A stretch of 64,000 nt of DNA from an uncultured beta proteobacterium (GCA_963789945.1 CAWBMN010000007.1:283178-347177), one strand, 5' to 3'. Shown: positions 18,294 through 39,438, counted from the stretch's first letter. Notes: a model not told the origin generated them from the sequence alone. Program-made: numbers and translations.

Positions 18294-18358
18294 GGCTCCG
18301 GCCGCGCCTGCGGCGCTTAACGTCGGCTACGCAGACATTAGCCTACGCCGCAACCTCG

Positions 18359-18481
18359 CTTGCTGACTACAGCTAACCTAAGTTGTAGTTCCGGCACGCT
18401 CTGCGAGCTTAACCTGACCGCCATCCGCGATCAGGTTAGCCTTCTCTGCAATCGTGTGCTGCTAGAGCAGCACAAGATTGT
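18359..18481. repeat. Copy B of the ~125-bp direct repeat, overlapping the true proB stop
   Basis: It is offset 188 bp from copy A. It includes the last ~7 proB codons (HRDNLVLL and stop) within the hairpin GTGCTGC-TAGA-GCAGCAC. Confidence 0.85.
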
Positions 18482-20669: not shown

Positions 20670-20684
20670 ATGAAGAACAGTTTA

Positions 20685-20857
20685 GCCACAGAGGGCACAG
20701 AGAACACAGAGAAGAGGAAAAACAAAAAATACCAGTAGAAGGGAAAAATTCCTGGTCGCACAACCGAGACCACGTCAAACAGCCGGCGGAGATATCCGCA
20801 GTTATTGCGCGGTTTGCACGTTGGTTTTCCTCTGTGATCTCTGTGTCCTCTGTGGCC
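20685..20857. repeat. Foldback element E4 (CACAGAG units, 9-nt period)
   Basis: Left arm: GCCACAGAGGGCACAGAGAACACAGAGAAGAGGAAAAAC. Right arm: GTTTTCCTCTGTGATCTCTGTGTCCTCTGTGGC. Spacer about 111 bp. It lies between the rpmA terminator and the obg start. Confidence 0.92.
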
Positions 20858-20862
20858 AAGTA

Positions 20863-20898
20863 AGAAACAAAAAAGCCCTACCGGTTCCGATAGGGCTT
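20863..20898 (-). terminator. Rho-independent terminator after rpmA
   Basis: On the minus strand: AAGCCCTA-TCGGAACCGG-TAGGGCTT followed by TTTTTGTT. Confidence 0.75.
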
Positions 20899-20918
20899 CT
20901 TGCCAAAGGCGGGAAACC

Positions 20919-21176
20919 TTACGCCGGCGTGACGCTCACGACTTTCCTGTTGTCCGGGCCCTTCACCGCGAAGGTCACTTTTCCGTCGATCTTGGCAAAC
21001 AGGGTGTGATCCTTGCCCATGCCGACATTCTCTCCGGCGTGGACCTGGGTTCCGCGCTGACGCACGATGATGCTGCCTGCCGGGATGACCTCGCCTCCGT
21101 AGCGCTTGACGCCCAGGCGTTTGGATTGTGAATCGCGGCCGTTGCGTGAGCTGCCGCCCGCTTTTTTATGTGCCAT
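20919..21176 (-). CDS. rpmA: 50S ribosomal protein L27
   Basis: [24 protein letters not shown]..., 85 aa. Confidence 0.97.
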
Positions 21177-21188
21177 TTGCTCTGCTCC

Positions 21189-21500
21189 TTAGCCCGAGAT
21201 CTCGCCGATCTGGATCTCGGTGTAGTTCTGCCGGTGGCCGCCGCTCTTGCGATAGTGCTTGCGGCGGCGCATCTTGAAGATGTGCACCTTGTCGGCGCGG
21301 CCGTGCGCAACAACCGTTGCCTGCACTGTTGCGCCGGCCACCAGGGGTGCCCCGATCGAGACCTTGTCGCCATCGGCGACCATCAATACCTGGTCCAGGG
21401 TAATCTGGCTGCCAACATCTGCAGGTATCTGTTCTACCTTGATTTTTTCGCCGGACGAGACACGGTACTGCTTGCCCCCGGTTTTTATGACCGCATACAT
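21189..21500 (-). CDS. rplU: 50S ribosomal protein L21
   Basis: [14 protein letters not shown]..., 103 aa, immediately upstream of rpmA. Confidence 0.97.
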
Positions 21501-21536
21501 GATGGAGCCCTTGATACGCTTTGAGGAAAGCCGCGC

Positions 21537-21565
21537 ATACTACATAAAAAGAGTGGCTTAGTAAA
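21537..21565 (-). promoter_or_regulatory. Candidate sigma-70 promoter for rplU-rpmA
   Basis: On the minus strand: TTTACT, a 17-nt spacer, then TAGTAT, about 35 nt upstream of the rplU ATG. Confidence 0.35.
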
Positions 21566-21698
21566 GGCGCCGGGCGGATCGAGGGAGGCGGATTGCGCTC
21601 AGGCCGCACTCTATGCAGGGGCGATCGAAACCTTGACACCGGAGCTTTGCGCTTCCTACCATCGCGCACTTTTTAATTCGCATTCCCAAGCCTGCAAC

Positions 21699-22667
21699 GT
21701 GACGCCCCACCTAATCAACGAAGTCATCGCCGCGGATCTGCGGGCGGTGGACGAGGTCATCCGTGACCGGCTCGATTCCGACGTCGTGCTGGTACGCCAG
21801 GTCGCGGACTACATCATCGGCGGCGGGGGCAAGCGACTGCGGCCCACGCTGGTCATCCTCGCGGCAGGCGCCTGCGGATATACCGGCCGGCACCATCTTC
21901 AGCTGGCCGCGGTGGTCGAGTTCATCCATACCGCCACGCTGCTTCACGACGACGTCGTCGACGACTCGCAGATGCGCCGCGGACGCTCCACCGCCAATTC
22001 CGCCTTCGGCGACGCTGCCGCCGTGCTGGTCGGTGATTTTCTTTACTCGCGCGCCTTTCAGATGATGGTGCAGGTGCAGAACATGCGCGTGATGGAGGTT
22101 CTCGCCGATGCTACCAATACCATTGCCGAGGGCGAGGTGATGCAGCTAATGCACGTTCACAACGCCGACGTCACCGAGACGGACTATTTGCGCGTCATCC
22201 GCTCGAAAACCGCCAAGCTGTTCGAGGCCGCCGGCCGCCTGGGTGGCATCCTCGCCGGCGTACCGCGCACGCAGGAAGATGCGCTGGCGGAGTATGGCAT
22301 GCACCTGGGCACGGCATTCCAGCTGGTGGACGACATTCTCGACTATTCGGGCGATCTCGCGCAGACCGGGAAGAATCTGGGCGATGACCTGTCCGAGGGC
22401 AAGGCCACGCTGCCGCTCATTCGTGCCATGCGCAACGGCGGCGCCGAGCAGAGCGCACTCATCCGCAAGGCCATTGTCGAGGGCGGGCTGAGCGATTTCG
22501 GGCCGGTGATGCAGGCGATGGAGGAGACGGGGGCGCTCGAGTACACGCGCAAGCAGGCGGAAGATTCGGCGCAACGGGCGCGTGCAGTCATTGCCGGCCT
22601 TCCACATTCTAAATACAAGGATTGTTTGCTAGAATTAGCGGCCTTTGCGGTGACCCGCAATTACTGA
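21699..22667 (+). CDS. ispB: Octaprenyl-diphosphate synthase (all-trans polyprenyl diphosphate synthase)
   Basis: It has two aspartate-rich motifs, LLHDDVVDD and LVDDILDY. I prefer the start at GTG 21699, because the TTG at 21633 is part of a TTGACA-18-TACCAT promoter-like site. The start is uncertain. Confidence 0.88.
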   Translation: MTPHLINEVIAADLRAVDEVIRDRLDSDVVLVRQVADYIIGGGGKRLRPTLVILAAGACGYTGRHHLQLAAVVEFIHTATLLHDDVVDDSQMRRGRSTANSAFGDAAAVLVGDFLYSRAFQMMVQVQNMRVMEVLADATNTIAEGEVMQLMHVHNADVTETDYLRVIRSKTAKLFEAAGRLGGILAGVPRTQEDALAEYGMHLGTAFQLVDDILDYSGDLAQTGKNLGDDLSEGKATLPLIRAMRNGGAEQSALIRKAIVEGGLSDFGPVMQAMEETGALEYTRKQAEDSAQRARAVIAGLPHSKYKDCLLELAAFAVTRNY

Positions 22668-22688
22668 AGCGTTAACGAGACTCACCGT

Positions 22689-22766
<78 letters not shown>

Positions 22767-22793
22767 TGCACATCACTCCACTTCGGAGCCCGC

Positions 22794-23033
22794 GTGGCCA
22801 AGTTTCTCCTAGTCATCGCCGTCTTCATCGTGGTGTATCTGTTCCTGCGCAGCTATCGCAGGCGCGTCGAAGCGGCTCCGCCGCCGGCGGCCGCGGCGAA
22901 GCATGGGGAGGACATGGTGCGCTGCCGGATCTGCGGCGTGCACCTGCCGAAGAGCGAAGCCGTCACCTCTCGCGGCGAGATCTATTGCAGCAAGGAACAT
23001 CTCCAGCTGGCCGACCGGGAACGCGGCCGCTGA
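22794..23033 (+). CDS. PP0621-family small zinc-ribbon membrane protein
   Basis: 79 aa. An N-terminal TM helix is followed by RCRICGVHLPKSEAV...GEIYCSKEH. It sits in the conserved position upstream of pilS/pilR-type genes. Confidence 0.65.
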   Translation: MAKFLLVIAVFIVVYLFLRSYRRRVEAAPPPAAAAKHGEDMVRCRICGVHLPKSEAVTSRGEIYCSKEHLQLADRERGR

Positions 23034-23052
23034 CCCGCGCGTGCCCGCGCCG

Positions 23053-24666
23053 ATGAGCAGCGTCCTGTCCCTCTCCGAGCTTCCGTCGGTCGAGCGCCGC
23101 CAGTATGGCGACGCGTTCTGGCGTTCGCTGTTCTATTTCAATGTCTATCGCCTGGTCGTCGCAATTGCGCTGATGGCGGCAGTGGTGGTTTTCGGCGACA
23201 ACATTCCCTTCGGCTCCTACAGCCGCACGACCTTCCTGTACGCGAACATCGCGTACGTCCTGTTCAGCCTGTTGTCGTTTGCGGCGGTCATTCCGCGCAA
23301 GCCGTATTTCACCCTGCAGCTTACGGTGCAGATCTGCGCCGACATCCTGTTTATCGTGGTGTTGATGCACGCGAGCGGCGGTATCGGCAGCGGCCTGGGG
23401 CTGCTGTTGCTCGCATCGCTGGCGGCGGTCGGCCTGATCAGCCGCGGGCGCCTGACGCTTTTTTTCGCGGCGCTGGCAACGATTGCCGTGCTAGCCGAGC
23501 ACACCTACCAAGTGGTGTTCCTGTTCGGATCGACGCCCCAGTTCGCGCAGGCCGGCCTGTTGTGCATCGGATTCTTCGCCACCGGCTGGCTTGCGCACTC
23601 GCTTGCCAAGCGTGCCGTGGCAATCGAGGCGATTGTGGCGCAGCGCGAAGTGGATCTTGCCAACATGGCGCAGGTCAACCAGCTGGTGATCCAGGACATG
23701 CAGGACGGGGTGCTGGTGGTGGACGAGCATGGGGCCATTCGCCAGATCAACGGCCGCGCCGAAGCCATACTGGGACCATTGCGGCGCAGCCCGCGCGAGG
23801 TGCTGCTCAGCGACTATGCGCCTACGCTGGCCGCGCGGCTGGAGCAGTGGCGCCGCGATCCGAAAGCTGATTTCGAGCCGCTGCGCACCGTGCTCACCCA
23901 CAAACCCACCGCTGCCCGATTTGTGCCGGTAGGGATCAGCCGCAAAGTGGGCGTGGTGATCTTCCTCGAAGACCTGTCGCGCATCCAGCAGCAGGCGCAG
24001 CAGTTGAAGCTGGCGTCGCTGGGCCGGCTGACCGCCAATATCGCCCACGAGATCAGGAACCCCCTGTCGGCGATCAACCATGCCACCGAGTTGCTGCTCG
24101 AGGATTCGGGATTTCACGGCCAATCGCAGGCACGGATGCTGCAGATCATTCACGACAACACGCAGCGGCTGGACCGGATGGTGCAGGACGTTCTCAAGCT
24201 GAACCGGCGCGATCAGGCCACGCGCGAGCATTTCAAGCTGGGCGACTACCTTCGCACCTTCGTTTCCCAGTTTTCCGAGATCGAGAAGATCCCCGGCGAC
24301 ATCATTCTCATCGACATCGAGGGCGACCCGACCGTGGGCTTCGATCGCAGCCACCTCAATCAGGTGATGTGGAACCTTTGCAGGAATGCCCTTCGCTACT
24401 GCAGGAGACAACCCGGCAGCATTCTGTTGCGCGTGCGGCCTGGTCCGCGACAGGGTACGATAGGGCTGAGTGTCATTGACGACGGAACCGGCGTGGCGGA
24501 GGCGTTGCGCGGGCATCTGTTCGAGCCGTTCTTCACCACGGCCTCCAGCGGCACCGGTCTCGGGCTCTACATTGCCCGGGAGATCTGTGAAGCAAATGGC
24601 GCCACGCTGGAATATGTGGAACGTCCGGTCGGCGCGGAGTTCACCCTGATCTGTAGAGGAACATGA
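23053..24666 (+). CDS. pilS: PilS-like sensor histidine kinase
   Basis: Start at ATG 23053 (MSSVLSL). It has about six N-terminal TM helices, the H-box LTANIAHEIRNPLSAI and the ATPase G-boxes DDGTGV and GTGLGL. Confidence 0.78.
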   Translation: MSSVLSLSELPSVERRQYGDAFWRSLFYFNVYRLVVAIALMAAVVVFGDNIPFGSYSRTTFLYANIAYVLFSLLSFAAVIPRKPYFTLQLTVQICADILFIVVLMHASGGIGSGLGLLLLASLAAVGLISRGRLTLFFAALATIAVLAEHTYQVVFLFGSTPQFAQAGLLCIGFFATGWLAHSLAKRAVAIEAIVAQREVDLANMAQVNQLVIQDMQDGVLVVDEHGAIRQINGRAEAILGPLRRSPREVLLSDYAPTLAARLEQWRRDPKADFEPLRTVLTHKPTAARFVPVGISRKVGVVIFLEDLSRIQQQAQQLKLASLGRLTANIAHEIRNPLSAINHATELLLEDSGFHGQSQARMLQIIHDNTQRLDRMVQDVLKLNRRDQATREHFKLGDYLRTFVSQFSEIEKIPGDIILIDIEGDPTVGFDRSHLNQVMWNLCRNALRYCRRQPGSILLRVRPGPRQGTIGLSVIDDGTGVAEALRGHLFEPFFTTASSGTGLGLYIAREICEANGATLEYVERPVGAEFTLICRGT

Positions 24667-26033
24667 GCGTGAAACGCAAGGAGCAGACGGCGGGCGCCAA
24701 CGCCCGCTCAGTGCTCATCGTCGACGACGAGGAAGACATCCTTGAGCTCATCGAGCTTACCCTGCTGCGCATGGGCCTGGACGTCGACCGCGCCACCAAC
24801 GTCAAGTCGGCGATCGAGAAGGTCCAGTCCGGCAACTACGACCTTTGCCTGACGGACATGCGGCTTCCGGACGGCGAAGGCCTGGAGCTGGTGCAGTTCA
24901 TCTCCGACAATCTTTCCGACCTGCCGGTCGCGGTGATAACCGCCCACGGCAATACCGAGAACGCCGTCAAGGCGCTCAAGGCCGGCGCCTTCGATTACCT
25001 GGCCAAGCCGGTGTCGCTGGAACAGTTGCGCACCCTGGTCAAATCCGCGTTGTCGCTGCCGCAAGTATCTGCCGCCAAGGCCGCGACCGGACATGCGCTG
25101 CTGGGCGAGTCGGGCGCGATCCAGCAGGTGCGCGACTTGATCGAGAAGCTGGCGCGCAGCGAAGCGCCGGTGCACATCAGCGGCGAGTCCGGCAGCGGCA
25201 AGGAACTTGCGGCGCGGCTCATCCACGAGAAAAGCGCGCGCCGCAGCCAGCCCTTCATGCCCGTCAACTGCGGCGCAATCCCCGAGAACCTGATGGAGTC
25301 CGAATTCTTCGGTTATCGCAAGGGCGCGTTTACCGGCGCGGACGCCGACCGCGACGGTTTCTTCCAGGCCGCCAACGGCGGCACGTTGTTTCTCGACGAG
25401 GTGGCCGACCTGCCGCTGGCGATGCAGGTGAAACTCCTGCGCGCAATACAGGAAAAGAAAGTGCGCAAGGTGGGTTCCACCCAGGAAGAACCGGTGGATG
25501 TGCGTATCATCAGTGCCACCCACCAGAAACTCGGCGAATGCGTGGAGGCGGGGAAGTTCCGGCACGATCTCTATTACCGGCTTAACGTCATCGAATTGCG
25601 CATGCCGGCGCTGCGGGAGTTGCGCGAGGACATTCCGCAGTTCGTCAGCGCGCTGCTCGACAAGCTGGCCCGCAATGCCGGGACAAGGAAGCCGGAAGTG
25701 AGCAGCGAGGCGCTGGAGGAACTCAAGCGCTACGACTTCCCCGGCAACGTGCGTGAACTGGAAAACGTGCTCGAACGCGCGATGGCGTTGTGCAGCGACG
25801 CCAGGATCACCGCCGACGACCTGCAACTCACCCCGCGCGACCTGCCTGAACAGGCCGTCGCCATCGGCGGCGACAGCAAGGCGCCGCTGCAGGACTATCT
25901 CGACCGGGTCGAAAAGGAAGCCATTCTCGAGGCGCTGGAGAAAACCCGTTTCAACCGTACCGCCGCGGCCAAGCTCCTCGGCATCACCTTCCGCTCCATG
26001 CGCTACAGAATGGAACGGCTTGGTCTGAACTAG
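24663..26033 (+). CDS. pilR: Sigma-54-dependent response regulator (PilR/NtrC family)
   Basis: It has a receiver domain (LIVDDEEDI...DLCLTDMRLPDG), an AAA+ domain (GESGSGKE, GAFTGA) and a C-terminal HTH (AAKLLGITFRSMRYRM). It overlaps the pilS stop by 4 nt. Confidence 0.85.
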   Translation: MSVKRKEQTAGANARSVLIVDDEEDILELIELTLLRMGLDVDRATNVKSAIEKVQSGNYDLCLTDMRLPDGEGLELVQFISDNLSDLPVAVITAHGNTENAVKALKAGAFDYLAKPVSLEQLRTLVKSALSLPQVSAAKAATGHALLGESGAIQQVRDLIEKLARSEAPVHISGESGSGKELAARLIHEKSARRSQPFMPVNCGAIPENLMESEFFGYRKGAFTGADADRDGFFQAANGGTLFLDEVADLPLAMQVKLLRAIQEKKVRKVGSTQEEPVDVRIISATHQKLGECVEAGKFRHDLYYRLNVIELRMPALRELREDIPQFVSALLDKLARNAGTRKPEVSSEALEELKRYDFPGNVRELENVLERAMALCSDARITADDLQLTPRDLPEQAVAIGGDSKAPLQDYLDRVEKEAILEALEKTRFNRTAAAKLLGITFRSMRYRMERLGLN

Positions 26034-26617
26034 TGAGGCCGGCGGCGGGAGGCGGGAAGCCGGCGAATTCCTGGAAGTTTGATCCTTCCGGCCTGCTTTC
26101 CGCGGCGGCATTCGTGCCTTCGCCGAACTGCGATGACAGGCCGGCCGGCGCGATCGTCGAGCTCCTGGTGATTCACAACATCAGCCTGCCGCCTGGCGAG
26201 TTCGGCGGCCCCGGCATCGTCGAGCTGTTCACAAACCGGCTCGACCCGCGGGCCCACCCGTACTATCGCGAAATCCACGGCCAAAAGGTCTCCAGCCACT
26301 TTCTGATACGCCGCGATGGCGAACTGATCCAGTTCGTTCCTTGCATCCGGCGCGCCTGGCATGCCGGGCAGTCCGAGTGGTGCGGCCGCGGCCGCTGCAA
26401 CGATTTTTCGGTTGGCGTTGAACTCGAAGGCGTGGACGATCAGCCGTTCACCGATTCCCAGTACGCGGTACTTGCGGCCCTGGCGCGGGCGCTCAAACGC
26501 GCCTACCCGATCCAGGAGTGCGTTGGCCATTCCGATATCGCCACCCCGCCCGGCCGCAAGACCGACCCGGGACCGCATTTCGACTGGGCTCCGCTTCCGA
26601 GCGATGCTCGAAAGTAG
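26033..26617 (+). CDS. ampD: 1,6-anhydro-N-acetylmuramyl-L-alanine amidase
   Basis: 194 aa. It contains LLVIHNISLPPGEFGG, SSHFLIRRDGELIQFV and AWHAGQS, typical of AmpD. Confidence 0.85.
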   Translation: MRPAAGGGKPANSWKFDPSGLLSAAAFVPSPNCDDRPAGAIVELLVIHNISLPPGEFGGPGIVELFTNRLDPRAHPYYREIHGQKVSSHFLIRRDGELIQFVPCIRRAWHAGQSEWCGRGRCNDFSVGVELEGVDDQPFTDSQYAVLAALARALKRAYPIQECVGHSDIATPPGRKTDPGPHFDWAPLPSDARK

Positions 26618-26628
26618 TAATTAGCGTT

Positions 26629-26706
26629 TAGTGGCTCGTGGCTAGTAAATTTGCCGGTCGTCCCCCGATTTCTTACCAACCACTAGCCACCAACCACCAG
26701 CCACTG
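26629..26706. repeat. Foldback element E5 (GTGGCTN / NAGCCAC heptamers)
   Basis: Left arm: GTGGCTC-GTGGCTA-GT. Spacer 26 bp. Right arm: CAACCAC-TAGCCAC-CAACCAC-CAGCCAC. It fills the ampD-HDAC gap and ends 5 nt before GTG 26712. Confidence 0.85.
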
Positions 26707-26711
26707 TCGTT

Positions 26712-27653
26712 GTGAAGATCTTCTACACCGACCACTACGTGCTGCCGCTTCCCGAGGGGTACCGGTTCCCGATGGCGAAGTACCGGCTTCTGCGTAAACG
26801 GGTTGAGGAAGCCGGCCTCGCAAATGGGGCAGGGCTGCACGAGCCACACGCAGCGACGGACGAGGAGATCCTGCGCGCGCACGATCGCGATTACCTGGAG
26901 CGGGTCGTGAGCGGCCGGTTGTCTGCGCAGGAGTTGCGCCGGATCGGCTTTCCCTGGACACCGCAAATGGTAGAGCGCTCGCGCCGTTCCGCCGGCGCCA
27001 CCATCGAGGCCTGCCGCGCTGCACTCGCCGACGGAGTCGGCGTAAATCTTGCCGGCGGCACTCATCATGCTTTCCGGGACCACGGCGAGGGCTATTGCGT
27101 TTTCAACGATTGCGCCGTAGCAGCATTGGCGATGCAGGCCGAAGGCCGCGCGCTGCGGGTCGCGATCCTCGACTGCGACGTGCATCAGGGCAACGGCACC
27201 GCCGCGATTCTGGCCGATGACCCGACCGTGTACACCTTCTCGATCCACGCCGCGAAAAATTTTCCGTTCCGCAAAGAGGTGAGCGACCTTGACATCGAAC
27301 TGCCGGACGGCGCCGGCGATTCCGACTACCTTGCCGCACTGGAACAAGGCATCTGCCACGCACTCTCGGCTGCACAGCCGGACCTGGCGATCTATCTTGC
27401 CGGCGCCGATCCTTACGAGGGCGACCGGCTCGGGCGGCTTGCGTTGACCAAAGAGGGTCTGCGGAAGCGCGACCGCAAGGTATTCGAGTTGTGCCGGGCG
27501 GCTTCGGTGTCGGTGGCCGTGGTGATGGCCGGCGGCTATTCCACTGACATTGCCGATACAGTGGACATCCACTTCTCCACCGTTGAAATCGCCGCAAGCA
27601 TCCCGCGCGCGTCGCAACATCCGGTTTTTTTCTCCGCAGTGCCGCAAATGTGA
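26712..27653 (+). CDS. Histone deacetylase-family amidohydrolase
   Basis: 313 aa with a GTG start. It contains GGTHHAFRDHGEGYCVFND and DCDVHQGNGT, the HDAC metal/active-site segments. Confidence 0.85.
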   Translation: MKIFYTDHYVLPLPEGYRFPMAKYRLLRKRVEEAGLANGAGLHEPHAATDEEILRAHDRDYLERVVSGRLSAQELRRIGFPWTPQMVERSRRSAGATIEACRAALADGVGVNLAGGTHHAFRDHGEGYCVFNDCAVAALAMQAEGRALRVAILDCDVHQGNGTAAILADDPTVYTFSIHAAKNFPFRKEVSDLDIELPDGAGDSDYLAALEQGICHALSAAQPDLAIYLAGADPYEGDRLGRLALTKEGLRKRDRKVFELCRAASVSVAVVMAGGYSTDIADTVDIHFSTVEIAASIPRASQHPVFFSAVPQM

Positions 27654-27756
27654 TGCCGATACAGCGTCGCAGCGATGCGTCGCTGCCGCGTTTCGTCACT
27701 TCGCATGCACTTCAATTGCGCAACCGAGCATTCTATTTTTCAAATGTAAAAATTTC

Positions 27757-27784
27757 TTGACAGGAGGTGTGGTACTACTAGAAT
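27757..27784 (+). promoter_or_regulatory. Candidate sigma-70 promoter of nrdA
   Basis: TTGACA (27757-27762), a 16-nt spacer, then TAGAAT (27779-27784), in an AT-rich patch upstream of nrdA. Confidence 0.55.
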
Positions 27785-27806
27785 TAGTCATGTCGGTATG
27801 GCCGAT

Positions 27807-27822
27807 GCACAACATATAGTGG
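27807..27822. promoter_or_regulatory. Candidate NrdR box
   Basis: GCACAACATATAGTGG matches 13 of 16 positions of the NrdR consensus acaCwAtATaTwGtgt as I remember it. It lies just downstream of the putative -10. I could not find a convincing second box. Confidence 0.45.
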
Positions 27823-27903
27823 TATTCAGAGAATGTGGTGGTTTCAGACAAATGCTCTTCCGGTTGTAGCTTCCAGGCGACAAGAATGTTCGAAGGAGAA
27901 AAA

Positions 27904-30771: not shown

Positions 30772-31021
30772 GGAGGCCTGCCTACCGCCTGCGGTTCGCC
30801 GCGCGCCGCCGACTGACGTTCTGGATGATGCGCAGCCGCGCCGAATCTGCGCGGTTTGCGGTTACCGCGAAGGTGCAATCCAGGGGCCGGGATTTTTTTT
30901 GAGCGATGAGCCGATCGAATTCATTCTCATCGCGATCGAAGGATAAAAAGGGGTCGCATCGCGACCGAATATCAAAGAAGTATTTGACATTCCACCGATA
31001 ACATTTATAAAGGAACCAGGC

Positions 31022-32170
31022 ATGCTGCAATTTGAGAATCACATTCCGAGTACCGGCGGTGCTGGTTTGCAGCCCGTCGTGGGCAACATTCCGGTGAGCA
31101 TTGTTCCGCCGGCGTGCGTTGCCGAATCCGATCCGGCCGCGGACGTTGCGCTTCGTCGTGTGCGCGTTGAAGACAAGCGCGTCATCAACGGACAGGCCGA
31201 CGTCAACCAGCTCGTCCCGTTCAAGTACAAGTGGGCCTGGGACAAATATCTGTCGGGCTGCGCCAACCACTGGATGCCCCAGGAAATCAACATGAGCCGG
31301 GACATCGCCACCTGGAAAGACCCGAACGGGCTGACCGAGGACGAGCGCCTGGTGGTCAAGCGCAATCTCGGTTTCTTCGTGACTGCCGACAGCCTGGCGG
31401 CCAACAATATCGTGCTCGGCACTTACCGCCACATCACTGCCCCGGAATGCCGGCAGTACCTGCTGCGCCAGGCTTTCGAAGAAGCGATCCACACCCACGC
31501 CTATCAGTACATCGTCGAGAGTCTGGGGCTGGACGAAGGCGAAATCTTCAACGCCTACCATGAGGTCTCCAGCATCCGGGACAAGGACGAGTTTCTGATC
31601 CCGTTCATCGAAACATTGACCGACCCGGAGTTCAAGACCGGCACCCCGGAGGCCGATCAGCAGCTCCTGAAAAGCCTGATCGTATTTGCCTGCATCATGG
31701 AGGGGCTGTTTTTCTATGTAGGCTTTGCCCAGATCCTGTCGCTGGGGCGCCAGAACAAGATGACGGGCGCCGCCGAGCAGTACCAGTACATCCTGCGCGA
31801 CGAGTCCATGCACTGCAATTTCGGCATCGACCTGATCAACCAGATCAAGATGGAAAACCCGCACTTGTGGACCCCGGAGTTCCGCGAGGAAATCCGCGGC
31901 CTGATCCAGCAGGGCGTGGAGCTGGAATACCGCTATGCAGAGGACACCATGCCGCGTGGCGTGCTGGGCCTGAACGCGCCGATGTTCAAGGAATACCTGC
32001 GCTTCGTGGCCAACCGCCGCGCGCAACAGATCGGCCTCGATCCGCTGTACCCGGGCGCGGCCAATCCGTTCCCGTGGATGTCGGAGATGGTCGACCTCAA
32101 AAAGGAGAAGAATTTCTTTGAAACCCGTGTGATCGAGTATCAGACGGGGGGGGCCCTGAACTGGGATTGA
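31022..32170 (+). CDS. nrdB: Ribonucleoside-diphosphate reductase beta subunit
   Basis: 382 aa. It contains the diiron ligand segments [13 protein letters not shown] and [10 protein letters not shown]. Confidence 0.96.
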
Positions 32171-32601
32171 TGCATGGGCCGCAAGAAGCTTTCTGTAGCA
32201 CCCGCGCTGCCGCCGGTCGAATCATCGGCCCGGCAGTGCACTTGTTAGGGCTGAATGGGTAAACCGGACAAGCAGTTCACTATTCAATTACGAAGCGCGC
32301 GGGGCCTCTCCAAAGAGCAGACCGCCAGGCCGGGAGCGACAATCCCCCGGGCCAAGGTTTCCTTTCCTCTTCGTTTCCGACAATTGGCCGAGTGGGGAGT
32401 CAACCCCTTTCCGGCCGTCCCCTCTCTCACGAATCGCGCTGCGGACATGGCAGGTCTTCGTCCGCGGCCCACAGAACTGTCCGATGACCGGTCAGGCGGC
32501 CGATTTGGCGCGCGCCCGGGCATTGGCGGTTGGCACCGAGAAGATCCGTTCTTCGAAGTGCTGGTAGTGCCCTTTGTTTAACTTTCATTAGGAGAATAGC
32601 A

Positions 32602-32922
32602 ATGGCAGCGAAGAGAAAAGCAGCGAAGAAGTCTACCAAGAAGAAGTCCACAGGCAAGAAGAAGGCCGCCAAGAAGCGTCCGGCAGCCAAGAAGGCAAAG
32701 CGCCGTTCCGGCAAGAAAAAGGCGGCGAAGAAAAAGGCCAAGAAGCCGGCCAAAAAGAAGGCGAAGAAGGCGAAGAAGCCCGCGAAAAAGAAGGCGAAGA
32801 AGAAAGCGGGCAAGAAGAAGCCTGCGGCCAGGCCGGCTGCCATGGCAGCCCCGGCCGCGCCGAAGCCAGTTTCTGCACCGGCGGCTTGGCCGTTTCCGGT
32901 AGCGGGTAACCGGCCTAACTAA
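32602..32922 (+). CDS. Histone H1-like lysine/alanine-rich nucleoid protein
   Basis: ATG 32602 follows AGGAGA. The protein is 106 aa: ~75 aa of K/A/P repeats (KKAAKK, KKPAKKKAKK) and then an A/P-rich tail. Confidence 0.72.
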   Translation: MAAKRKAAKKSTKKKSTGKKKAAKKRPAAKKAKRRSGKKKAAKKKAKKPAKKKAKKAKKPAKKKAKKKAGKKKPAARPAAMAAPAAPKPVSAPAAWPFPVAGNRPN

Positions 32923-33335
32923 GCTTCCCAGATGCTCGCGGGCAGTCTGCATCCGCGATGGATACCAGACACTGAGCCGCGAGCTTTGGACTTGCAGTAC
33001 ACATAGCCGGGCCTGAAAGGGCACGGTCGAGTTGGAGCTTTAAGCAAACCTCCGCCGATCAAGAGACGGGAGGCGGGGCAAGTTCCATACGCAAATCTTC
33101 TTGTCCCGATTCGGGACGAGAGGGTAGTTTCGTTCCTGCTGAAAGTGAAACGCTAAGCACTTCAAAGATCAAGCAAAAGTCCCGGCGGGAGTCGGCCCGG
33201 AAAGGGCACCCGGGATCCGCCGGGACGGAGAGAAAACAGGACGTTCACGGGACGAGGCAGCGGATCGGATCTGCTGCCTCCTTGATTTCGGTCCGCAACC
33301 GCCGCCGGGCGGACTCTGGCGGAAAGGGGACAGCG

Positions 33336-33524
33336 ATGAAAGCACCAAGCAGAAACGCAGGCTTCATCTGCCTGCTGCTGTTTATTGTCGGAGTGATTGG
33401 TTTTTTCGTGCCGCTTGCCGGCATACCTTACGCCGGTCCGGTTCTGCAGATATTGAACGAGATCGATGTTTACATCCTGATGGTTGGTTACGGACTGCTG
33501 CTGCTGACCGTCTACATCTTCTAG
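33336..33524 (+). CDS. Small two-helix membrane protein (hypothetical)
   Basis: 62 aa: MKAPSRNAGFICLLLFIVGVIGFFVPLAGIPYAGPVLQILNEIDVYILMVGYGLLLLTVYIF. It has two clear hydrophobic helices but no strong RBS. Confidence 0.4.
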   Translation: MKAPSRNAGFICLLLFIVGVIGFFVPLAGIPYAGPVLQILNEIDVYILMVGYGLLLLTVYIF

Positions 33525-33557
33525 CAAAAAAGAAGGGCTGGTCTCTGAAACCAGCCC
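33525..33557 (-). terminator. Rho-independent terminator after the peroxiredoxin gene
   Basis: Hairpin GGGCTGGT-(7 nt)-ACCAGCCC. On the minus strand it is followed by TTCTTTTTTG. Confidence 0.72.
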
Positions 33558-33593
33558 CAGGCCTCGGCTGACTGCTCGATCAGCGTCTGGATA

Positions 33594-34235
33594 TCAGCGA
33601 TTGGGTTGCGGGGTCATGCGCAAATAGGGACGCAACGCCTTGTAGCCTTTCGGGAATTTCTGCTTGATTATCTCCGGGTCCTGCAACGACGGCACGATGA
33701 CCACGTCGTCGCCGTCCTTCCAGTTCACCGGCGTGGCGACGCTGTAGCGGTCAGTGAGTTGCAGCGAATCGATCACCCTCAGGATCTCGTCGAAATTCCT
33801 CCCGGTGCTTGCCGGGTAGGTGATGGTCGCGCGCACTTTCTTATTCGGGTCGATGATGAAAACCGAACGCACGGTGAACGTGTCGCTGGCATTCGGGTGG
33901 ATCATGTCGTAGAGGTTCGACACCTTCCGGTCGGCGTCCGCCAGGATCGGAAAATTGACCCTGGTTTTCTGCGTGTCGTTGATGTCGTCGATCCACTTGA
34001 TATGCGAGTCCACCGGGTCGACACTCACCGCGATTGCCTTGACGCCGCGCTTCTCGAACTCAGCCTTGAGCTTGGCGGTGTAGCCGAGTTCAGTGGTGCA
34101 CACCGGGGTAAAATCCTTCGGGTGGGAGAACAGGACGGTCCAGCTGTTGCCGATCCACTTGTGAAACTCGATCGGTCCCGTGCTGGATTCCTGCGTGAAA
34201 TCGGGGGCAATGTCGCCCAGTCGTAAAGTGGCCAT
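33594..34235 (-). CDS. 1-Cys peroxiredoxin (Prx6-like)
   Basis: 213 aa. It contains MATLRLGDIAPDF, and the peroxidatic site is HPKDFTPVCTTE. Confidence 0.92.
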   Translation of the reverse strand: MATLRLGDIAPDFTQESSTGPIEFHKWIGNSWTVLFSHPKDFTPVCTTELGYTAKLKAEFEKRGVKAIAVSVDPVDSHIKWIDDINDTQKTRVNFPILADADRKVSNLYDMIHPNASDTFTVRSVFIIDPNKKVRATITYPASTGRNFDEILRVIDSLQLTDRYSVATPVNWKDGDDVVIVPSLQDPEIIKQKFPKGYKALRPYLRMTPQPNR

Positions 34236-34348
34236 GATGATCTCCGGTTAGCTTTCGAAACTTGAACGGGTGAGTCTAGCGGCCGCTTTATATTACACAA
34301 ACGAACGCTTTTACATATCTTAATTCCGGATGGGCTTATAGTCGGAGT

Positions 34349-34570
34349 GTGGCCATGGAAAGAAAGAAAGTGAACTCGAGCTCAATCCGGGCGGTCGGGT
34401 ACGACGAGCGCGGCCGCGTGCTGGAGGTGGAATTCAACGACGGCCGCGTCAATCAGTACAACGGGGTTTCGCCCGAAGTGCACCGGCGGCTGATCAGCGC
34501 GCCGTCGATCATCAGCTATTTCCGCGATAACGTCGAAGAGTCCTTTCCCGCAAAGCGCGTAAAGGGGTAG
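34349..34570 (+). CDS. KTSC domain-containing protein
   Basis: 73 aa. VNSSSIRAVGYDERGRVLEVEFNDGRVNQYNGVSPEVHRRL matches the KTSC pattern. The start could instead be ATG 34355. Confidence 0.72.
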   Translation: MAMERKKVNSSSIRAVGYDERGRVLEVEFNDGRVNQYNGVSPEVHRRLISAPSIISYFRDNVEESFPAKRVKG

Positions 34571-34593
34571 CCGGCCGATGGCCGGCATCAGAT

Positions 34594-34726
34594 GCGCTGA
34601 CGCGAAGGGCGCAAGGGAAAAAAGAAAGTACGGGAAAGCTATACTTTTACGAGCCACGAGCCAGAGCCACGAGCCACGAGCCACGAGCCACGAGCCACGA
34701 GCCACGAGCCACGAGCCACGAGCCAC
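34594..34726. repeat. Composite foldback-family element E6a, with an expanded (GAGCCAC)11 array
   Basis: The head GCGCTGACGCGAAGGGCGCAAGGGAAAAAAG (34594-34627) is homologous to 39139-39170. It is followed by 11 tandem heptamers GAGCCAC, one of them 6 nt, at 34651-34726. Confidence 0.9.
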
Positions 34727-34731
34727 GGCGT

Positions 34732-35331
34732 TCAACATTCCGGCTCCCCTTCCTTAGGCCGGGGATTCGGATCGAAACCGAATTTCTGCGGCACCTCGCC
34801 AGCCTGGATACGCCCTACCGGGACGCGGTTGCCGGCATAGTCGAAATACAGCCCGGTCGCGTGACGCCGGGCCCCGGCATCGAAGGCTCGCCCCAGAACG
34901 GCGTCGCCGACCGGCTTGCCGTGAACATCGGTGAACAGGACCATGATGTCCGCCAGGTCGCGATCGCTGACCAGGCCCGGGCCGCCGCTCCAGCGCAACA
35001 ACAGTGAGCCCGTTTCGTCCATCCACGCGCCGGTGGCTCGCTCCACTGCCTGCCCCGTATGCGTGATCAGTGCTGTCGCGCCGGTGCCGGCGGTAGCAAT
35101 GACGAAAGGCGCATATTCCAGCGTCACGAACACCCGTTGCGGCCCGTTCTGGAAAAACCAGCGCCCCTGCTCGTCGGCGGCATAATTGCGGCCGATAAAG
35201 GCTACAACACCCGGGTTGGATATCCGCTCTCCCTTGATCATCCAACTGCCACGACGATCCAGGCTCAACCACCCATATACGTGGGGTACGTTGGGCCACT
35301 TGGCCATTGACTGGATGACGATCGGGTCCAT
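34732..35331 (-). CDS. Conserved hypothetical protein
   Basis: The ORF is open from 35430, but the plausible start is ATG 35331 or 35307 (MAKWPNVPHVYGWLSLDRRGSWMIKGERISNP...RWFFQNGPQRVFVTLEYAPF). I cannot name the family with confidence. Confidence 0.55.
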   Translation of the reverse strand: MDPIVIQSMAKWPNVPHVYGWLSLDRRGSWMIKGERISNPGVVAFIGRNYAADEQGRWFFQNGPQRVFVTLEYAPFVIATAGTGATALITHTGQAVERATGAWMDETGSLLLRWSGGPGLVSDRDLADIMVLFTDVHGKPVGDAVLGRAFDAGARRHATGLYFDYAGNRVPVGRIQAGEVPQKFGFDPNPRPKEGEPEC

Positions 35332-35422
35332 GCGGATGCAGAATAGGCAGGCGCCAAAAAAAATTCTACCCGTCTCGCACAATAACGGCCCCGGAAGGCC
35401 GTGGTCGAACGTAGACTTGTTA

Positions 35423-35528
35423 CCAGTCACCAGTCACCAGTCACCAGTCACCAGTCACCAGTCACCAGTCACCAGTCACCAGTCACCAGTCACCAGTCAC
35501 CAGTCACCAGTCACCAGTCACCAGTCAC
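35423..35528. repeat. Expanded heptamer array E6b, (CCAGTCA)15
   Basis: About 15 perfect tandem copies (106 bp) lie in the divergent gap between the hypothetical gene and the GST gene. The array ends at the GGAG RBS of the GST gene. The unit matches the NNGTCAC right-arm units of E11 and E14. Confidence 0.95.
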
Positions 35529-35538
35529 GGAGTCGTCA

Positions 35539-36183
35539 ATGGCACTGACCTTCTACTACGGTTCCGGCTCGCCCTATGCATGGCGGGTCTGGCTTGCGCT
35601 TGAACACAAGGCGATTGCCTACGAATTGAAGACGATCTCGTTCTCGGCGGGCGACCTCAAGAAGCCCGAGTTCCTGAAGATCAACCCGCGCCACAAAGTA
35701 CCCGCGATTACCGACGGCGACCTGGCCCTGTACGAATCGGCCGCAATTGTGGAATACCTGGACGAGCAATACGCTTCGGGCAAGAAGCTCTTTCCTGGCA
35801 ACGCCAGGCAGCGTGCGGTTATCCGGCGCCTGGTGCGTGAAGCGGACGAATATTTCGCCCACGCGCAGGAGCGGCTGGTTGACCAGGTGCTGTTCACGCC
35901 GCAGGACAAGTGGGATGCCGGCGAGATTGCCTCCGCGCGCAAATCCCTGGGGCGGGAACTGGGAATTTTCGAGGGTTACCTGTCCGGTGATTACCTGTCC
36001 GGCGAATTCTCGGCCGCGGACATCACGCTTTATCCCATGATCGCGCTGTGCCTGCGCATGGAAAGAAAGAAGCCGGATCTGGATGTGCGCAGCGCTATCG
36101 GATCGAAGCTCGGCGCATGGATGAAGCGCATCGAGGCGCTGCCGTACTTCGACAAGACCTATCCCCCGCACTGGAAAACCTGA
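35539..36183 (+). CDS. Glutathione S-transferase
   Basis: ATG 35539 lies 7 nt after GGAG. The protein has MALTFYYGSGSPYAWRVW, KVPAITDGDLALYESAAIVEYL and a GST C-terminal domain. Confidence 0.9.
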   Translation: MALTFYYGSGSPYAWRVWLALEHKAIAYELKTISFSAGDLKKPEFLKINPRHKVPAITDGDLALYESAAIVEYLDEQYASGKKLFPGNARQRAVIRRLVREADEYFAHAQERLVDQVLFTPQDKWDAGEIASARKSLGRELGIFEGYLSGDYLSGEFSAADITLYPMIALCLRMERKKPDLDVRSAIGSKLGAWMKRIEALPYFDKTYPPHWKT

Positions 36184-36215
36184 GTCAGCCGGTCTGACGA
36201 CTGGCTGCAAAAGCG

Positions 36216-36403
36216 TTGACGCAGAGGTCGCAGAGATACGCAGAGGGCACGGAGAAAAACAAGATAGGAATCTGGAGGGGAGGCAAATTGGGAATCTAGT
36301 GCTTGCACGTGAGTGACTGGGGAGCGGCACCGAACACTCACTCCCTTCGTTCCGCATTCCTCTGCGACCTTTCTTGCCTTTCTCTGCGCCCTCTGCGTCA
36401 ACG
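36216..36403. repeat. Foldback element E7 (CGCAGAG units)
   Basis: Left arm: CGTTGACGCAGAGG-TCGCAGAG-ATACGCAGAG-GGCACGGAGAAAAAC. Right arm: CCTCTGCG...CTCTGCG-CC-CTCTGCGTCAACG. The ~90-bp spacer has an internal hairpin GTGAGTG/CACTCAC. It fills the gap between the convergent GST and VOC genes. Confidence 0.92.
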
Positions 36404-36406
36404 ACC

Positions 36407-36859
36407 TTATTGCTGGCCTCCGGCGAGCTTGTCCCAGTTGTCGTGCCGATGGCGGCGCTCGTCGCGGTAGTTGGTCACTTCAAGGCGCAAGCCATCCGGG
36501 TCGCTGAAGAAGGTTGCATAGTAATCGACCGCGTACTCCGGGTACTGTTTCGGCTCTGAAGCGTCGATACCTGCAGCGCGCAACTTCGCCGCCGTATCCT
36601 CCACCTCGTCTTTGCCTTCGACGCGCAGACAGAAGTGATGCAGTCCCGGCGCATACGGGTCATGAGGAATGCGGCTTCTGGCCGGCCGCAGCACGAAGCC
36701 GAAGTGCCGGTTGAAGTACTGAACGTGCGGGTCGCCACCAATCGTAAATATGTTCTTCCTGAAACCGAGGGCGGCCATTGCCCTGTCATAGAACGCCTCG
36801 GAACGGCCAAGGTCGCTCACGGCAATATAGATGTGGTCTATTCCAATGACTTCGCTCAT
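36407..36859 (-). CDS. VOC/glyoxalase-family protein
   Basis: 150 aa. GIDHIYIAVSDLGRSEAFY and GLHHFCLRVEG are typical of the VOC fold. Confidence 0.82.
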   Translation of the reverse strand: MSEVIGIDHIYIAVSDLGRSEAFYDRAMAALGFRKNIFTIGGDPHVQYFNRHFGFVLRPARSRIPHDPYAPGLHHFCLRVEGKDEVEDTAAKLRAAGIDASEPKQYPEYAVDYYATFFSDPDGLRLEVTNYRDERRHRHDNWDKLAGGQQ

Positions 36860-36974
36860 TGGTCTGAAGTCTCCGGGATTTCGACACCAGGATTCGGTAC
36901 CATTATGCCCAAAACCAACCTGGGTTCACGGAGGAAGTCCTCGTGTTCGATTTCATTTCCCCGGGAGTCGCGCC

Positions 36975-38240
36975 ATGAGCATCCTGCTCGGATGCGTAGC
37001 CGATGACTTCACCGGTGCGACCGACCTCGCCAATACACTGGTCAAGGCGCACATGCGCACCGTGCAACTGTTGGGCGTGCCGCGTCCGGGACTGAAAATG
37101 CCTGCCGCTGATTGCGTCATTGTGGCGCTCAAGTCGCGCAGCAATCCCGCCAACGAGGCGGTCACCATGTCGCTCGCCGCTCTCGACTGGCTGCGGCAAC
37201 AGGGCGCCAGGCAATACTACTTCAAGTACTGCTCGACGTTCGACTCCACCGACAAGGGCAACATCGGCCCGGTCGCTGACGCGATGCTGGATGCTATCGG
37301 CGCGGACTTCTCTGTATTCAACCCGGCCTTTCCGACCAACAAGCGCACCGTCTACAAGGGGTATCTGTTCGTTGGCGATGAGCTGCTGTCCGAATCCGGG
37401 ATGCGTCACCATCCGCTCACCCCGATGACCGATCCGTCGCTGGTCCGGGTGCTGCAGCGGCAGACCCGGCACAAGGTCGGCTCGGTTCCGTACGCGACCA
37501 TCGTGAACGGAGTGGAGGCGATTCGCGACGCCTTCGAAAAGCTCCGCAAGCAGGGCATCCGCCATGCGATTCTCGACTCGATCACCGACGAGCATCTGAT
37601 AACGCTGGGCGAGGCTTGCGCTGATCTGAAGGTCGTCACCGGCGGCTCCGGAATGGCGATGGGGCTGCCTGCGAACTTCGTCAGAAAGGGCCTGATGAAA
37701 AGCGGCCAGCACTCGCCTTTACCGACAGTCACCGGGCCCACTGCCGTGTTGGCGGGGTCCTGCTCGGTCGCAACCCAGGGGCAAGTTGCAGCCATGAAGC
37801 AGGATCATGAGTACTTTGAACTCGAGCCGATGGCGATTGCTTCCGGTCGCGATCTCGCGCAGGAGGCGCTCAACTGGGCTGCGAGCCGGCTTTCCGAAAA
37901 ACCGGTTCTGATCTATTCGACCGCCACTCCGGAGCAGGTGAAGGCGGTGCAGGAGCGCCTTGGGCGCGAACATGCGGGCGCTCTGGTGGAGGAAACATTG
38001 GGCAAGATCGCCAGGGGGCTGGTGGCGGCGGGCGTGCGACGGCTGGTGGTTGCCGGCGGCGAGACATCCGGCGCGGTGGTCGGTGCGCTCGGCGTCGAAG
38101 GTCTCGCAATCGGCCCCGAGATCGACCCCGGGGTGCCCTGGACGTTCTCGATCGGCGAACCGGCCTTGGCGCTGGCGTTGAAGTCCGGCAACTTCGGTAC
38201 TCCTGATTTCTTCATCAAAGCCTTCAAGCTTCAACCTTGA
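36975..38240 (+). CDS. otnK: Four-carbon acid-sugar kinase (DUF1537 family), probably 3-oxo-tetronate kinase
   Basis: ATG 36975. MSILLGCVADDFTGATDLANTLV is the DUF1537 N-terminal signature. It is paired with a class II aldolase-family gene downstream. Confidence 0.7.
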   Translation: MSILLGCVADDFTGATDLANTLVKAHMRTVQLLGVPRPGLKMPAADCVIVALKSRSNPANEAVTMSLAALDWLRQQGARQYYFKYCSTFDSTDKGNIGPVADAMLDAIGADFSVFNPAFPTNKRTVYKGYLFVGDELLSESGMRHHPLTPMTDPSLVRVLQRQTRHKVGSVPYATIVNGVEAIRDAFEKLRKQGIRHAILDSITDEHLITLGEACADLKVVTGGSGMAMGLPANFVRKGLMKSGQHSPLPTVTGPTAVLAGSCSVATQGQVAAMKQDHEYFELEPMAIASGRDLAQEALNWAASRLSEKPVLIYSTATPEQVKAVQERLGREHAGALVEETLGKIARGLVAAGVRRLVVAGGETSGAVVGALGVEGLAIGPEIDPGVPWTFSIGEPALALALKSGNFGTPDFFIKAFKLQP

Positions 38241-38247
38241 GACCGCG

Positions 38248-38413
38248 TTCACCACGAAGGCACGAAGACACGAAGGAATTCGAATTCGAACCGTAATTGT
38301 TATGCGATACCGGTGACCGCCAGTGGTCCTGTTGCAGTCGGCGAACAAGCCAGGATATTTCGGTTTTCGCAAACCTTCAGATTTTCTTCGTGTCTTCGTG
38401 CCTTCGTGGTGAA
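38248..38413. repeat. Foldback element E8 (CACGAAG units, 8-nt period)
   Basis: The arms form a perfect 28-nt inverted repeat, TTCACCACGAAGGCACGAAGACACGAAG (left 38248-38275; reverse complement at about 38386-38413). Spacer about 87 bp. It lies between otnK and otnC. Confidence 0.95.
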
Positions 38414-39070: not shown

Positions 39071-39257
39071 GAATCAGGATTCAGGAATCAGAATTCGGGA
39101 CTCAGCGAAATTCAGCCGGCCGACGGCTGGAGTTAAAAGCGTTGACGCGAAGCGCGCCAAGGGAAAAAAATTGAGGACGCGAAGGTGAAACGGGATCAAC
39201 AGCGTTCTATACGGGAATTCACGAACAAGAAATTTGGACTTGTCCACGAGCCACGAG
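39071..39257. repeat. Composite foldback-family element E9
   Basis: From left to right: (GAATCAGG/ATTCAGG)-type 7-8 nt array at 39071-39115; a GC hairpin; the head GCGTTGACGCGAAGCGCGCCAAGGGAAAAAAA (39139-39170); GACGCGAAGG; then CCACGAG-CCACGAG at 39244-39257. It is homologous to E6a. Confidence 0.8.
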
Positions 39258-39438
39258 TTCCGTCATGGGAAGTCGCTACGGCACGTTCAAGAATTTCTAC
39301 CCGCCCTACAGTTTGATCGGCGACTGGCGCCTGTAGGCGCAAATCCTCGTGGGAAGGTTCCGGTTGTGAATCCTGTCGCCGCGGCAGGGTCTGCGACTAG
39401 AATGAGATTGTCCTAGTCGAAGGTAGCGCGCGACCGTC

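Follow-up and report, generated by a model that had tools for sequence, protein, structure and literature searches.

Intergenic hairpin elements with paired heptamer arrays in a soil betaproteobacterium: sub-families shared across phyla and exchanged as whole units

We looked at a family of intergenic inverted-repeat elements in a 64,000-nucleotide stretch of DNA from an uncultured beta proteobacterium (GCA_963789945.1 CAWBMN010000007.1:283178-347177), hereafter called the window. An earlier note on this DNA had described five of them (E4, E7, E8, E10 and E13) as each having its own repeated unit, mirrored in the partner arm, and had proposed that pairing is maintained by selection or by arm-to-arm copying. 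We found that the unit variants are sub-families common to the window, its relatives and many phyla, and not the outcome of in situ compensation among the five copies. The five copies and at least seven more are probably gene-less members of a widespread family of selfish, invertible intergenic hairpin cassettes, whose full-length relatives carry the gene of GxxExxY, a PD-(D/E)XK nuclease, as their loop. The match between the arms most likely comes in the main from the descent of both arms together and from recombination between them, base-by-base compensation having a small part. The element class, more than the mirroring of the arms, is the more interesting result.

Results

Anatomy of the five elements

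The five copies are intergenic and 166-190 nt long. Each is built of two inverted arms, in which a 7-nt core (CACAGAG, CGCAGAG or CACGAAG) is repeated with a 1-2 nt linker, around a loop of 70-135 nt without conservation. In the family as a whole, the termini have a constant polarity (TTNNC...GNNAA), the inverted arms contain 2-5 tandem 7-nt cores (C-R-C-N-R-A-G in the present subclass) with a 1-2 nt linker, and the loop is variable. Placement is tight, 6-12 nt past a stop codon and 6-31 nt ahead of the next start codon. The five copies are as follows.

20682-20859, no strand: E4, CACAGAG type; left arm 20682-20722, right arm 20818-20859; RNAfold z = -10.2
36214-36403, no strand: E7, CGCAGAG type with one CACGGAG unit; arms CGTTGACGCAGAGG...CCTCTGCGTCAACG
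38248-38413, no strand: E8, CACGAAG type; perfect 28-nt inverted repeat TTCACCACGAAGGCACGAAGACACGAAG; RNAfold z = -10.4
50214-50395, no strand: E10, CACAGAG type; 3 units on the left, 4 on the right; z = -10.6 on the transcribed strand
55796-55963, no strand: E13, CACAGAG type; termini TTGACC...GGTCAA; RNAfold z = -7.0

On reading all five sequences, we found the perfect inverted repeat of E8 and the units of E7 and of the CACAGAG copies to be as described earlier; the E8 repeat reaches 34 nt at 94% complementarity. The common termini of E4 and E10 were confirmed (TTAGCC on the left, at 20682-20687 and 50214-50219; GGCCAA on the right, at 20854-20859 and 50390-50395), and so was the unequal unit number of the E10 arms. 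The loops of the named copies have no similarity to one another, in agreement with the spacers having been called unconserved. The A-rich and T-rich inner edges, which had been given as conserved, are evident in E4, E7 and relatives (GAGGAAAAAC) but are not exact in E8, E10 and E13.

Two further details were seen in these copies. The asymmetry of the E4 and E10 termini corresponds to an A.C mismatch, which becomes G.U on the transcribed minus strand, and the loops of the two elements are unrelated. Inside E10 (50243-50365), degenerate CGCAAAG-like arms (GCAAAGACGAAAACG ... CGCGTCTTGCTTATTCGC) lie within well-kept CACAGAG arms, which means that decay has gone further in the inner units than in the outer ones; nested or compound elements were likewise found at loci of other genomes (L016, L059, L077, L079 and L120).

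For a count, we used a strict detector, defined as a 6-mer doubled at 7-11 nt together with its reverse complement doubled within 600 nt. The window gave 6 elements, whereas none was detected in any of 20 shuffled versions. In total, the window holds at least 12 such elements, which belong to at least eight unit types and occupy about one fifth of its intergenic regions.

Unit types are sub-families shared between elements and phyla

The mean score of a left arm against its own right arm was 20.3, compared to 8.8 against the right arms of other elements. Among E4, E10 and E13, the cross scores between arms were 23-28 vs 23-24 for their own partners, unrelated types scoring about 9. The two GTGAC elements (53770-53892 and 59378-59532) also cross-match in their arms, and the E8 unit, CACGAAG, was found again in the window element at 166-313 and in relatives. 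The idea that each copy has a unit of its own was thus not borne out: E4, E10 and E13 have interchangeable arms, and every unit type recurs elsewhere.

One genome per species was then scanned with a 26-nt CACAGAG-arm pattern, for which about 0.03 chance hits are expected by our own estimate. At least 120 loci were obtained, spread over more than 15 phyla. Among the matches listed were Planctomycetota, Acidobacteriota, Chloroflexota, Bacteroidota, Cyanobacteria, Desulfobacterota and others, and the taxa included Proteobacteria, Verrucomicrobiota, Chlamydiia and Firmicutes. In these listed matches, the purine-rich array came before its complement 65 times and after it 3 times, and other units were present as well (CGCAAAG, CGCCAAG, CGCGGAG, CACGGA, GGATGAA and more). 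An arm from Bacteroides finegoldii mixes units within itself, as CACAGAG-CGCAGAG-CACGGAG. The variants are multi-copy sub-families and not singletons. This comes near to a picture of separate high-copy families of identical copies, which the earlier note had regarded as speaking against within-element compensation; the correspondence is not full, because the copies are non-identical and their loops unrelated.

Two side observations concern the CACAGAG type. In a Chitinophaga metagenome-assembled genome (MAG; L063, 650-1151), 4-5 entire CACAGAG elements follow one another head to tail, one every 110 nt or so; their loops are partly homologous, and the arrangement is a tandem duplication of complete elements. 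In Bacteroides fragilis, a primer located upstream of BF2782, adjoining an invertible promoter, contains CACCACAGAGAACACAGAG, that is, a CACAGAG arm with a CACC terminus (PMC3090145).

Elements at orthologous sites are gained, lost and replaced

The window belongs to an uncultured lineage of soil Burkholderiales/Betaproteobacteria; the best named Obg relatives share 82-84% identity, and the exact-protein look-up of two window proteins returned no record. For comparison, we used relatives from soil Burkholderiales metagenomes. E8 is located within the otnK-otnC operon, where the otnK stop lies 7 nt before the element and the otnC start codon 24 nt after it. A metagenome scan with OtnK gave 66 loci, of which the otnK-otnC junction was compared. 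No element was found at this junction in relatives of 76-85% identity, nor in one of 95%, and the stop and start codons of the element-free junctions overlap or are at most 59 nt apart. Relatives of 86-97% identity have an element with CACGAAG, CGCAAAG, CGCAGAG, mixed or CACGGAG arms, and those of 62-65% identity a CACAGAG element. Orthologous E8 alleles were compared in loci L121-L129 and L147. L121 has CACGAAG arms vs CGCAAAG arms in L147, with flanking coding DNA only 3% apart. Whole elements are thus swapped at as little as 3% divergence of the flanking DNA, which does not fit a reading of the differences between window copies as compensation in place.

At the E4 site, L187 and L188 have a CACGAAG-type element with an unrelated loop instead. 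The orthologue of another window element, E3 (14116-14302), is kept in L187 but is shorter, with 105 nt and about 6 units (about half), and E5 (26631-26704) is absent from L187, the intergenic gap there being 11 nt. E7 has orthologues in L123 and L126 but none in L127 and L128; the state in L128 resembles a microhomology deletion.

Pairing of the arms and folding

The reading of the earlier note was that of an RNA hairpin evolving by compensation in place: one arm drifts, selection for pairing fixes the partner change, and each copy ends up with its own unit. We consider this unlikely, although part of the evidence is in its favor. At the otnK-otnC site, pairs were counted in eight elements of 8-nt period. 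Paired cells amounted to 96.2%, compared to 83.0 +/- 1.7 in shuffles (0 of 500 reached the observed value) and 33-53% in slid controls, so the complementarity of the arms goes beyond both controls, as had been supposed. Formal covariation at this one site was also strong, since 11 of 26 pairs were altered on both sides, with a covariation score of 0.468 vs 0.209. However, this covariation comes from only two arm haplotypes (4 vs 4) and thus from few events, and the switch from one haplotype to the other involves about 12 coordinated changes between genomes that are 3% apart in flanking DNA. The clearest mirrored change was found between L125 and L128, the loops of which are 89% identical, where CGCAAAG became CGCAGAG/CGCGGAG in both arms. 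Between the window and L126, one terminal T-A pair has become C-G, a compensatory change, and one C-to-U change gives G.U; otherwise, stem changes between orthologues are mostly single and uncompensated. The recurrence of unit types across phyla also speaks against compensation in each copy.

We then looked at what is mirrored in 69 CACAGAG elements. The linker dinucleotides were complementary between arms in 47% of cases, compared to 38.8 +/- 3.1% in permuted pairs. For the base located two positions outward from the first core, which is A or G, a match with the partner was seen in 91% of elements vs 49% expected. Linkers being barely mirrored and the terminus base being matched, the arms have the type of core and of terminus in common, not each base. 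A minority of elements have copy-private outward stem extensions of 9-21 nt. Unit number was equal in both arms in only 35 of the 69 elements, in keeping with the proposal that the register can slip by one unit.

On the strand of the flanking genes, arm mismatches had no bias to G.U over A.C (62 vs 62), a soft null that depends on heuristic gene calls. This lack of wobble bias, like the free linkers, is a point against compensation at the RNA level. Both strands were folded, as the earlier note had suggested. RNAfold z-scores of the five named copies were about -6 to -10, and the minimum free energy of the sense strand was below that of the antisense strand in 12 of 13 otnK-otnC elements, a result that favors a role of RNA pairing. 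Among window elements, the strand preference was mixed. Altogether, a constraint at the RNA level is suggested by these predicted folds.

Loops are found in both orientations

The loops of L147 and of L123 and L124 gave local scores of 47 and 31 when one was inverted, compared to 12 and 11 in direct orientation. Similarly, the L121 loop matched those of the window and L126 with scores of 18-19 inverted and 7-8 direct, and the inner arm linkers were swapped accordingly. E7 of the window scored 39 inverted and 11 direct against L123; here the flip covers the element from end to end, and the window copy's right arm matches the L123 left arm. These are three independent events in a handful of comparisons, made between genomes and not within one population. 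From the three loop inversions, it follows that the arms interact and recombine at the DNA level, and arm-to-arm conversion is therefore a credible source of mirrored changes. With regard to the proposal that pairing is kept by selection or by arm-to-arm copying, the flips make copying plausible, whereas selection on every pair is not supported (linkers at 47%, no wobble bias).

As in an invertible DNA switch, the segment is bounded by inverted repeats and both orientations are found (in the three between-genome comparisons). Unlike such a switch, no sigma-70-like promoter was detected in E7, E8, E10 and E13, and no adjoining recombinase was noted.

Full-length relatives carry a GxxExxY gene

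A CACAGAG element of L118 has as its loop an open reading frame (ORF) of 125 amino acids encoding a GxxExxY protein (TIGR04256, E = 1.6e-46; Pfam PF13366 PDDEXK_3). In the sampled loci, three of four GxxExxY genes were located exactly between a left and a right arm (twice in L118 and once in L091). We also took an unbiased tblastn sample of eight GxxExxY genes on plasmids and secondary replicons of isolates. Three of the eight, from Bacteroides finegoldii, Bernardetia and Sphingomonas, are enclosed by CRCNRAG-type inverted arrays with TTCAC(C)...(G)GTGAA termini, and the Sphingomonas gene is inserted inside fabD-fabG. Full-length relatives with such arms and termini were thus seen in Bacteroidota, Alphaproteobacteria and several MAGs. 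The Treponema gene has a single-unit inverted repeat, and that of Gemmatirosa lies between two complete small CGCAGAG hairpins. The E...D...ExK nuclease residues were invariant in eight aligned GxxExxY proteins, from isolate replicons and two MAG loci. No solved GxxExxY structure was found by sequence, and the literature on GxxExxY that we found was limited to incidental mentions.

Candidate cargo genes in long element-like pairs were rejected, as these are mostly ordinary genes between two neighbouring elements. In Sphingomonas parapaucimobilis (L193, 392-820), the GxxExxY coding sequence overruns the conserved domain by 20 codons, through the right arm; annotated ends of GxxExxY genes may therefore be artefacts of arm sequence.

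Other elements and repeats of the window

The other elements and lone arrays of the window are listed below.

166-313, no strand: compound element; left arm 166-212, CACAGAG x2 then CACGAAG x2
3573-3735, no strand: CGCAAAG-type element; left arm TTCGACGCAAAGGCGCAAAGACGCAAAG; right arm decayed; between convergent ORFs
14116-14302, no strand: E3, AAGGATG/CATCCTT type; between the rubrerythrin gene and the next gene; right arm of about 11 units
26631-26704, no strand: E5, small GTGGYTG/CCACGAG type; between amidase and deacetylase genes
34649-34727, plus strand: lone expanded array (ACGAGCC) x11, i.e. CCACGAG units; without inverted partner
35419-35528, plus strand: lone expanded array (ACCAGTC) x15, i.e. 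CAGTCAC units (right-arm form, GTGACTG family); without inverted partner
53770-53892, no strand: GTGACNN/NNGTCAC-type element; arms cross-match the element at 59378-59532
54803-54908, no strand: CGAGGNN/CCTCG-type element; RNAfold z = -5.6
59378-59532, no strand: GTGACAA/GTCAC-type element; RNAfold z = -5.6
60479-60511, plus strand: lone AAGGATG array; preceded directly by the terminator-like hairpin 60455-60478; without clear partner arm

The right arm of the compound element (247-313) consists of degenerate CTTCGTG units, and its RNAfold z is -3.0 to -3.5. The element at 3573-3735 folds no better than shuffles (RNAfold z = -0.2) and is therefore a decaying copy. The two near-perfect arrays (34649-34727 and 35419-35528) are found on either side of a DUF2946 gene (34732-35430, minus strand). 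They are not mutually complementary and resemble slippage-expanded single arms from two unit families.

As for the setting of the named copies other than E8, E4 is located, on the minus strand, between the terminator-like hairpin of rplU-rpmA (20870-20900) and the obg start codon (20669). E7 has convergent genes on either side, a GST-like one (stop 36183) and one of the VOC family (stop 36407). Two co-directional minus-strand genes, encoding an SDR-family protein and a hydrolase, surround E10, and E13 has an ABC permease gene on one side and the next plus-strand gene on the other.

Repeats of other kinds were also seen. A different repeat, of about 110 nt, is present twice in the intergenic region between proB and CNP1 (18261-18480), each copy having a 32-nt palindrome (CAATCGYGTGCTGCTARAGCAGCACAAGATTG) followed by GGCTAACCTGATCGC...GGTCAGGTTAAG; one copy is present in L187 and two in L188. 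A coding region at 32625-32808 has an AAG/GCC-rich repeat, lysine/alanine-rich, with periods of 12-33 nt, and is probably a low-complexity basic protein tail. Past otnC, an unusually long intergenic region (39071-39439, about 370 nt) has GAATCAG-like heptamers at 39071-39105, a promoter-like site at 39142-39171 and, near 39245, a CACGAGCCACGAG motif.

Discussion

How the elements may arise and persist

In the explanation that we favor, both arms of an element derive from one sub-family by descent, and elements arrive, or are replaced, as whole units, as the comparisons at orthologous sites show. Recombination between arms, together with template switching, would copy changes from one arm to the other, and unit number drifts by slippage. 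The element would be transcribed within its host operon, where the long stem may rejoin the flanking cistrons, as in the intervening sequences (IVSs) of 23S rRNA; by the same analogy, the stem would probably be cut by RNase III. Such folding and cutting would make the insertion tolerable and would constrain pairing somewhat. Cores and polarity are probably conserved because a nuclease or recombination machinery of the element itself recognises them. Both RNase III processing and selection on RNA pairing are plausible when judged by the IVS analogy.

We also put forward, as a tentative proposal that is possible rather than probable, that these elements belong to one unnamed pan-bacterial class. 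In such a class, the GxxExxY nuclease would recognise the heptamer arrays at the ends and would spread the cassette, or maintain it, between genes and at rRNA helix tips, full copies would be fewer than gene-less miniatures, and the arms would drive frequent inversion and concerted evolution. The class would unite rRNA IVSs, the 'regulator sites' of Geobacter and many unexplained intergenic heptamer arrays.

Several observations weigh against a family of selfish, invertible cassettes whose arms match through descent and recombination. No target-site duplication was found at the ends of E4, E7, E8, E10 and E13 or at empty and filled otnK-otnC junctions. No GxxExxY gene was found in the window or in about 330 kb from relatives, which leaves mobilisation in this lineage unexplained, and cargo-bearing copies are rare in the sampled loci (about 3 in 100). 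Three of the eight GxxExxY genes from isolates, those of Prevotella, Persicobacter and Fusobacteria, which are more divergent, are accompanied by direct and not inverted repeats. The flips are formally indistinguishable from a loss followed by re-insertion in the opposite orientation. In the best orthologous pair, the window and L126, the stems changed about half as much as the loop (5 of 68 positions vs 12 of 97). Finally, support at the RNA level is weak, given the absence of a G.U bias and the mixed strand preference in the window.

Other roles of the elements

The elements could be intercistronic RNA elements of benefit to the host, comparable to repetitive extragenic palindromes (REP) and bacterial interspersed mosaic elements (BIME), and govern how strongly neighbouring cistrons are expressed relative to one another, as stabilisers or sites of processing. 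We find this rather improbable. The tight placement between stop and start codons agrees with it, and so do the long and stable stems, none of which resembles a terminator or a promoter. Presence, absence and replacement at one site argue against a conserved role of single elements, however, and the association with a nuclease gene as well as the spread across phyla fit a selfish element better.

Another reading is that of DNA-level binding sites for host regulators or nucleoid proteins, in which paired inverted arrays bend or loop the DNA. In Geobacter metallireducens, paired arrays of 3-5 tandem 7-9 nt repeats were annotated as putative regulator sites, in classes 1-4 (Aklujkar et al. 2009, PMC2700814), and binding was the reading proposed for them (PMC2700814). 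Like the present elements, these sites have tandem repeats paired on opposite strands at a variable distance and are found at dozens of intergenic places. When reverse-complemented, the class 2 consensus, TCTCCGTS, reads CACGGAGA (PMC2700814) and thus equals the CACGGAG unit. Binding would also account for conserved cores with free linkers, for the fixed polarity, for cores common to distant phyla and for arms without wobble bias. We nevertheless hold it to be very unlikely here, as the eight or more unit types in 64 kb would need as many proteins, elements turn over or switch type between close relatives with unchanged flanking genes, and the sites lie within operons and between convergent genes, not at a constant distance from promoters. 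Moreover, the Geobacter sites were read as protein-binding, and no cargo gene, inversion or turnover was described for them.

Some other candidates were set aside. A role as intrinsic terminator or promoter was rejected, with no terminator-like site on the elements and no promoter-like coincidence. A CsrA sponge or Shine-Dalgarno decoy is unlikely, the purine arm being paired and several unit types being without GGA, and telomerase-like addition at breaks was rejected because the outer units are better conserved. Integron attC sites do not apply either: the termini do not fit GTTRRRY, the cargo is inside the hairpin, and the flanks are housekeeping genes in mixed orientations. As regards loops being captured foreign DNA, a search of a phage collection gave no match, and a plasmid search with E4 gave an arm match only.

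Relation to known elements

The IVSs of 23S rRNA in Coxiella burnetii, Leptospira and Salmonella resemble the present elements by a long stem (28-34 bp here) around a variable loop or small ORF. The Coxiella IVS has a 28-bp terminal stem cut by RNase III and an internal S23p ORF, and its arm holds 2-3 tandem GACAGAT heptamers, the number of which depends on the strain (PMC4990558); tandem heptamers in varying number are a feature of both. IVSs are viewed as sporadically distributed and horizontally transferred (bioRxiv 10.1101/2024.02.27.582315). In contrast to IVSs, the window elements lie between protein-coding genes and not at rRNA helix tips (helices 9, 25 and 45), and the window contains no rRNA. 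Their loops are without ORF, and their relatives carry GxxExxY (PF13366) and not the four-helix-bundle protein S23p. Excision by RNase III, the cut in the stem by which the insertion is tolerated, is a feature of IVSs and would extend to the present elements by analogy.

Like miniature inverted-repeat transposable elements (MITEs), Correia elements, REP, BIME and Rickettsia palindromic elements (RPE), the elements are short, multi-copy and intergenic, with terminal inverted repeats, can fold as RNA and are sometimes located inside operons. Unlike MITEs, their loops are unique except between orthologues, no transposase partner was found, and their arms are arrays of short tandem units. They differ from REP and BIME by heptamer arrays and TTNNC termini, without the palindrome signature of about 35 nt with GTAG. 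Foldback (FB) elements of Drosophila also have inverted arms made of tandem sub-repeats, with a unit number that varies between arms and copies, and are eukaryotic and much larger. The short tandemly repeated repetitive (STRR) sequences of cyanobacteria are intergenic tandem heptamers with units (CCCCAGT and others) that differ from the present ones; to our knowledge, no inverted pairs of STRR units with a gene between them have been described.

An Rfam search of the window, with gathering and E-value thresholds, gave tRNA and chance microRNA-like hits only. A literature search with the exact arm sequences gave the B. fragilis primer only, and we found no paper linking the arrays to GxxExxY, inversion or turnover.

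Meaning of the element class

The elements are thus found across many phyla while having neither an Rfam family nor a name in the literature that we searched. Their stem, made of tandem units, still pairs after a slip by a whole unit, which makes it a neat structure robust to insertions and deletions. Because they are quickly gained, lost, replaced and inverted inside operons, they contribute to variation at the strain level and are a likely origin of assembly and annotation artefacts. If the link to GxxExxY is true, it would provide the first functional context for a very common family of 'hypothetical' proteins and a possible origin of rRNA intervening sequences.

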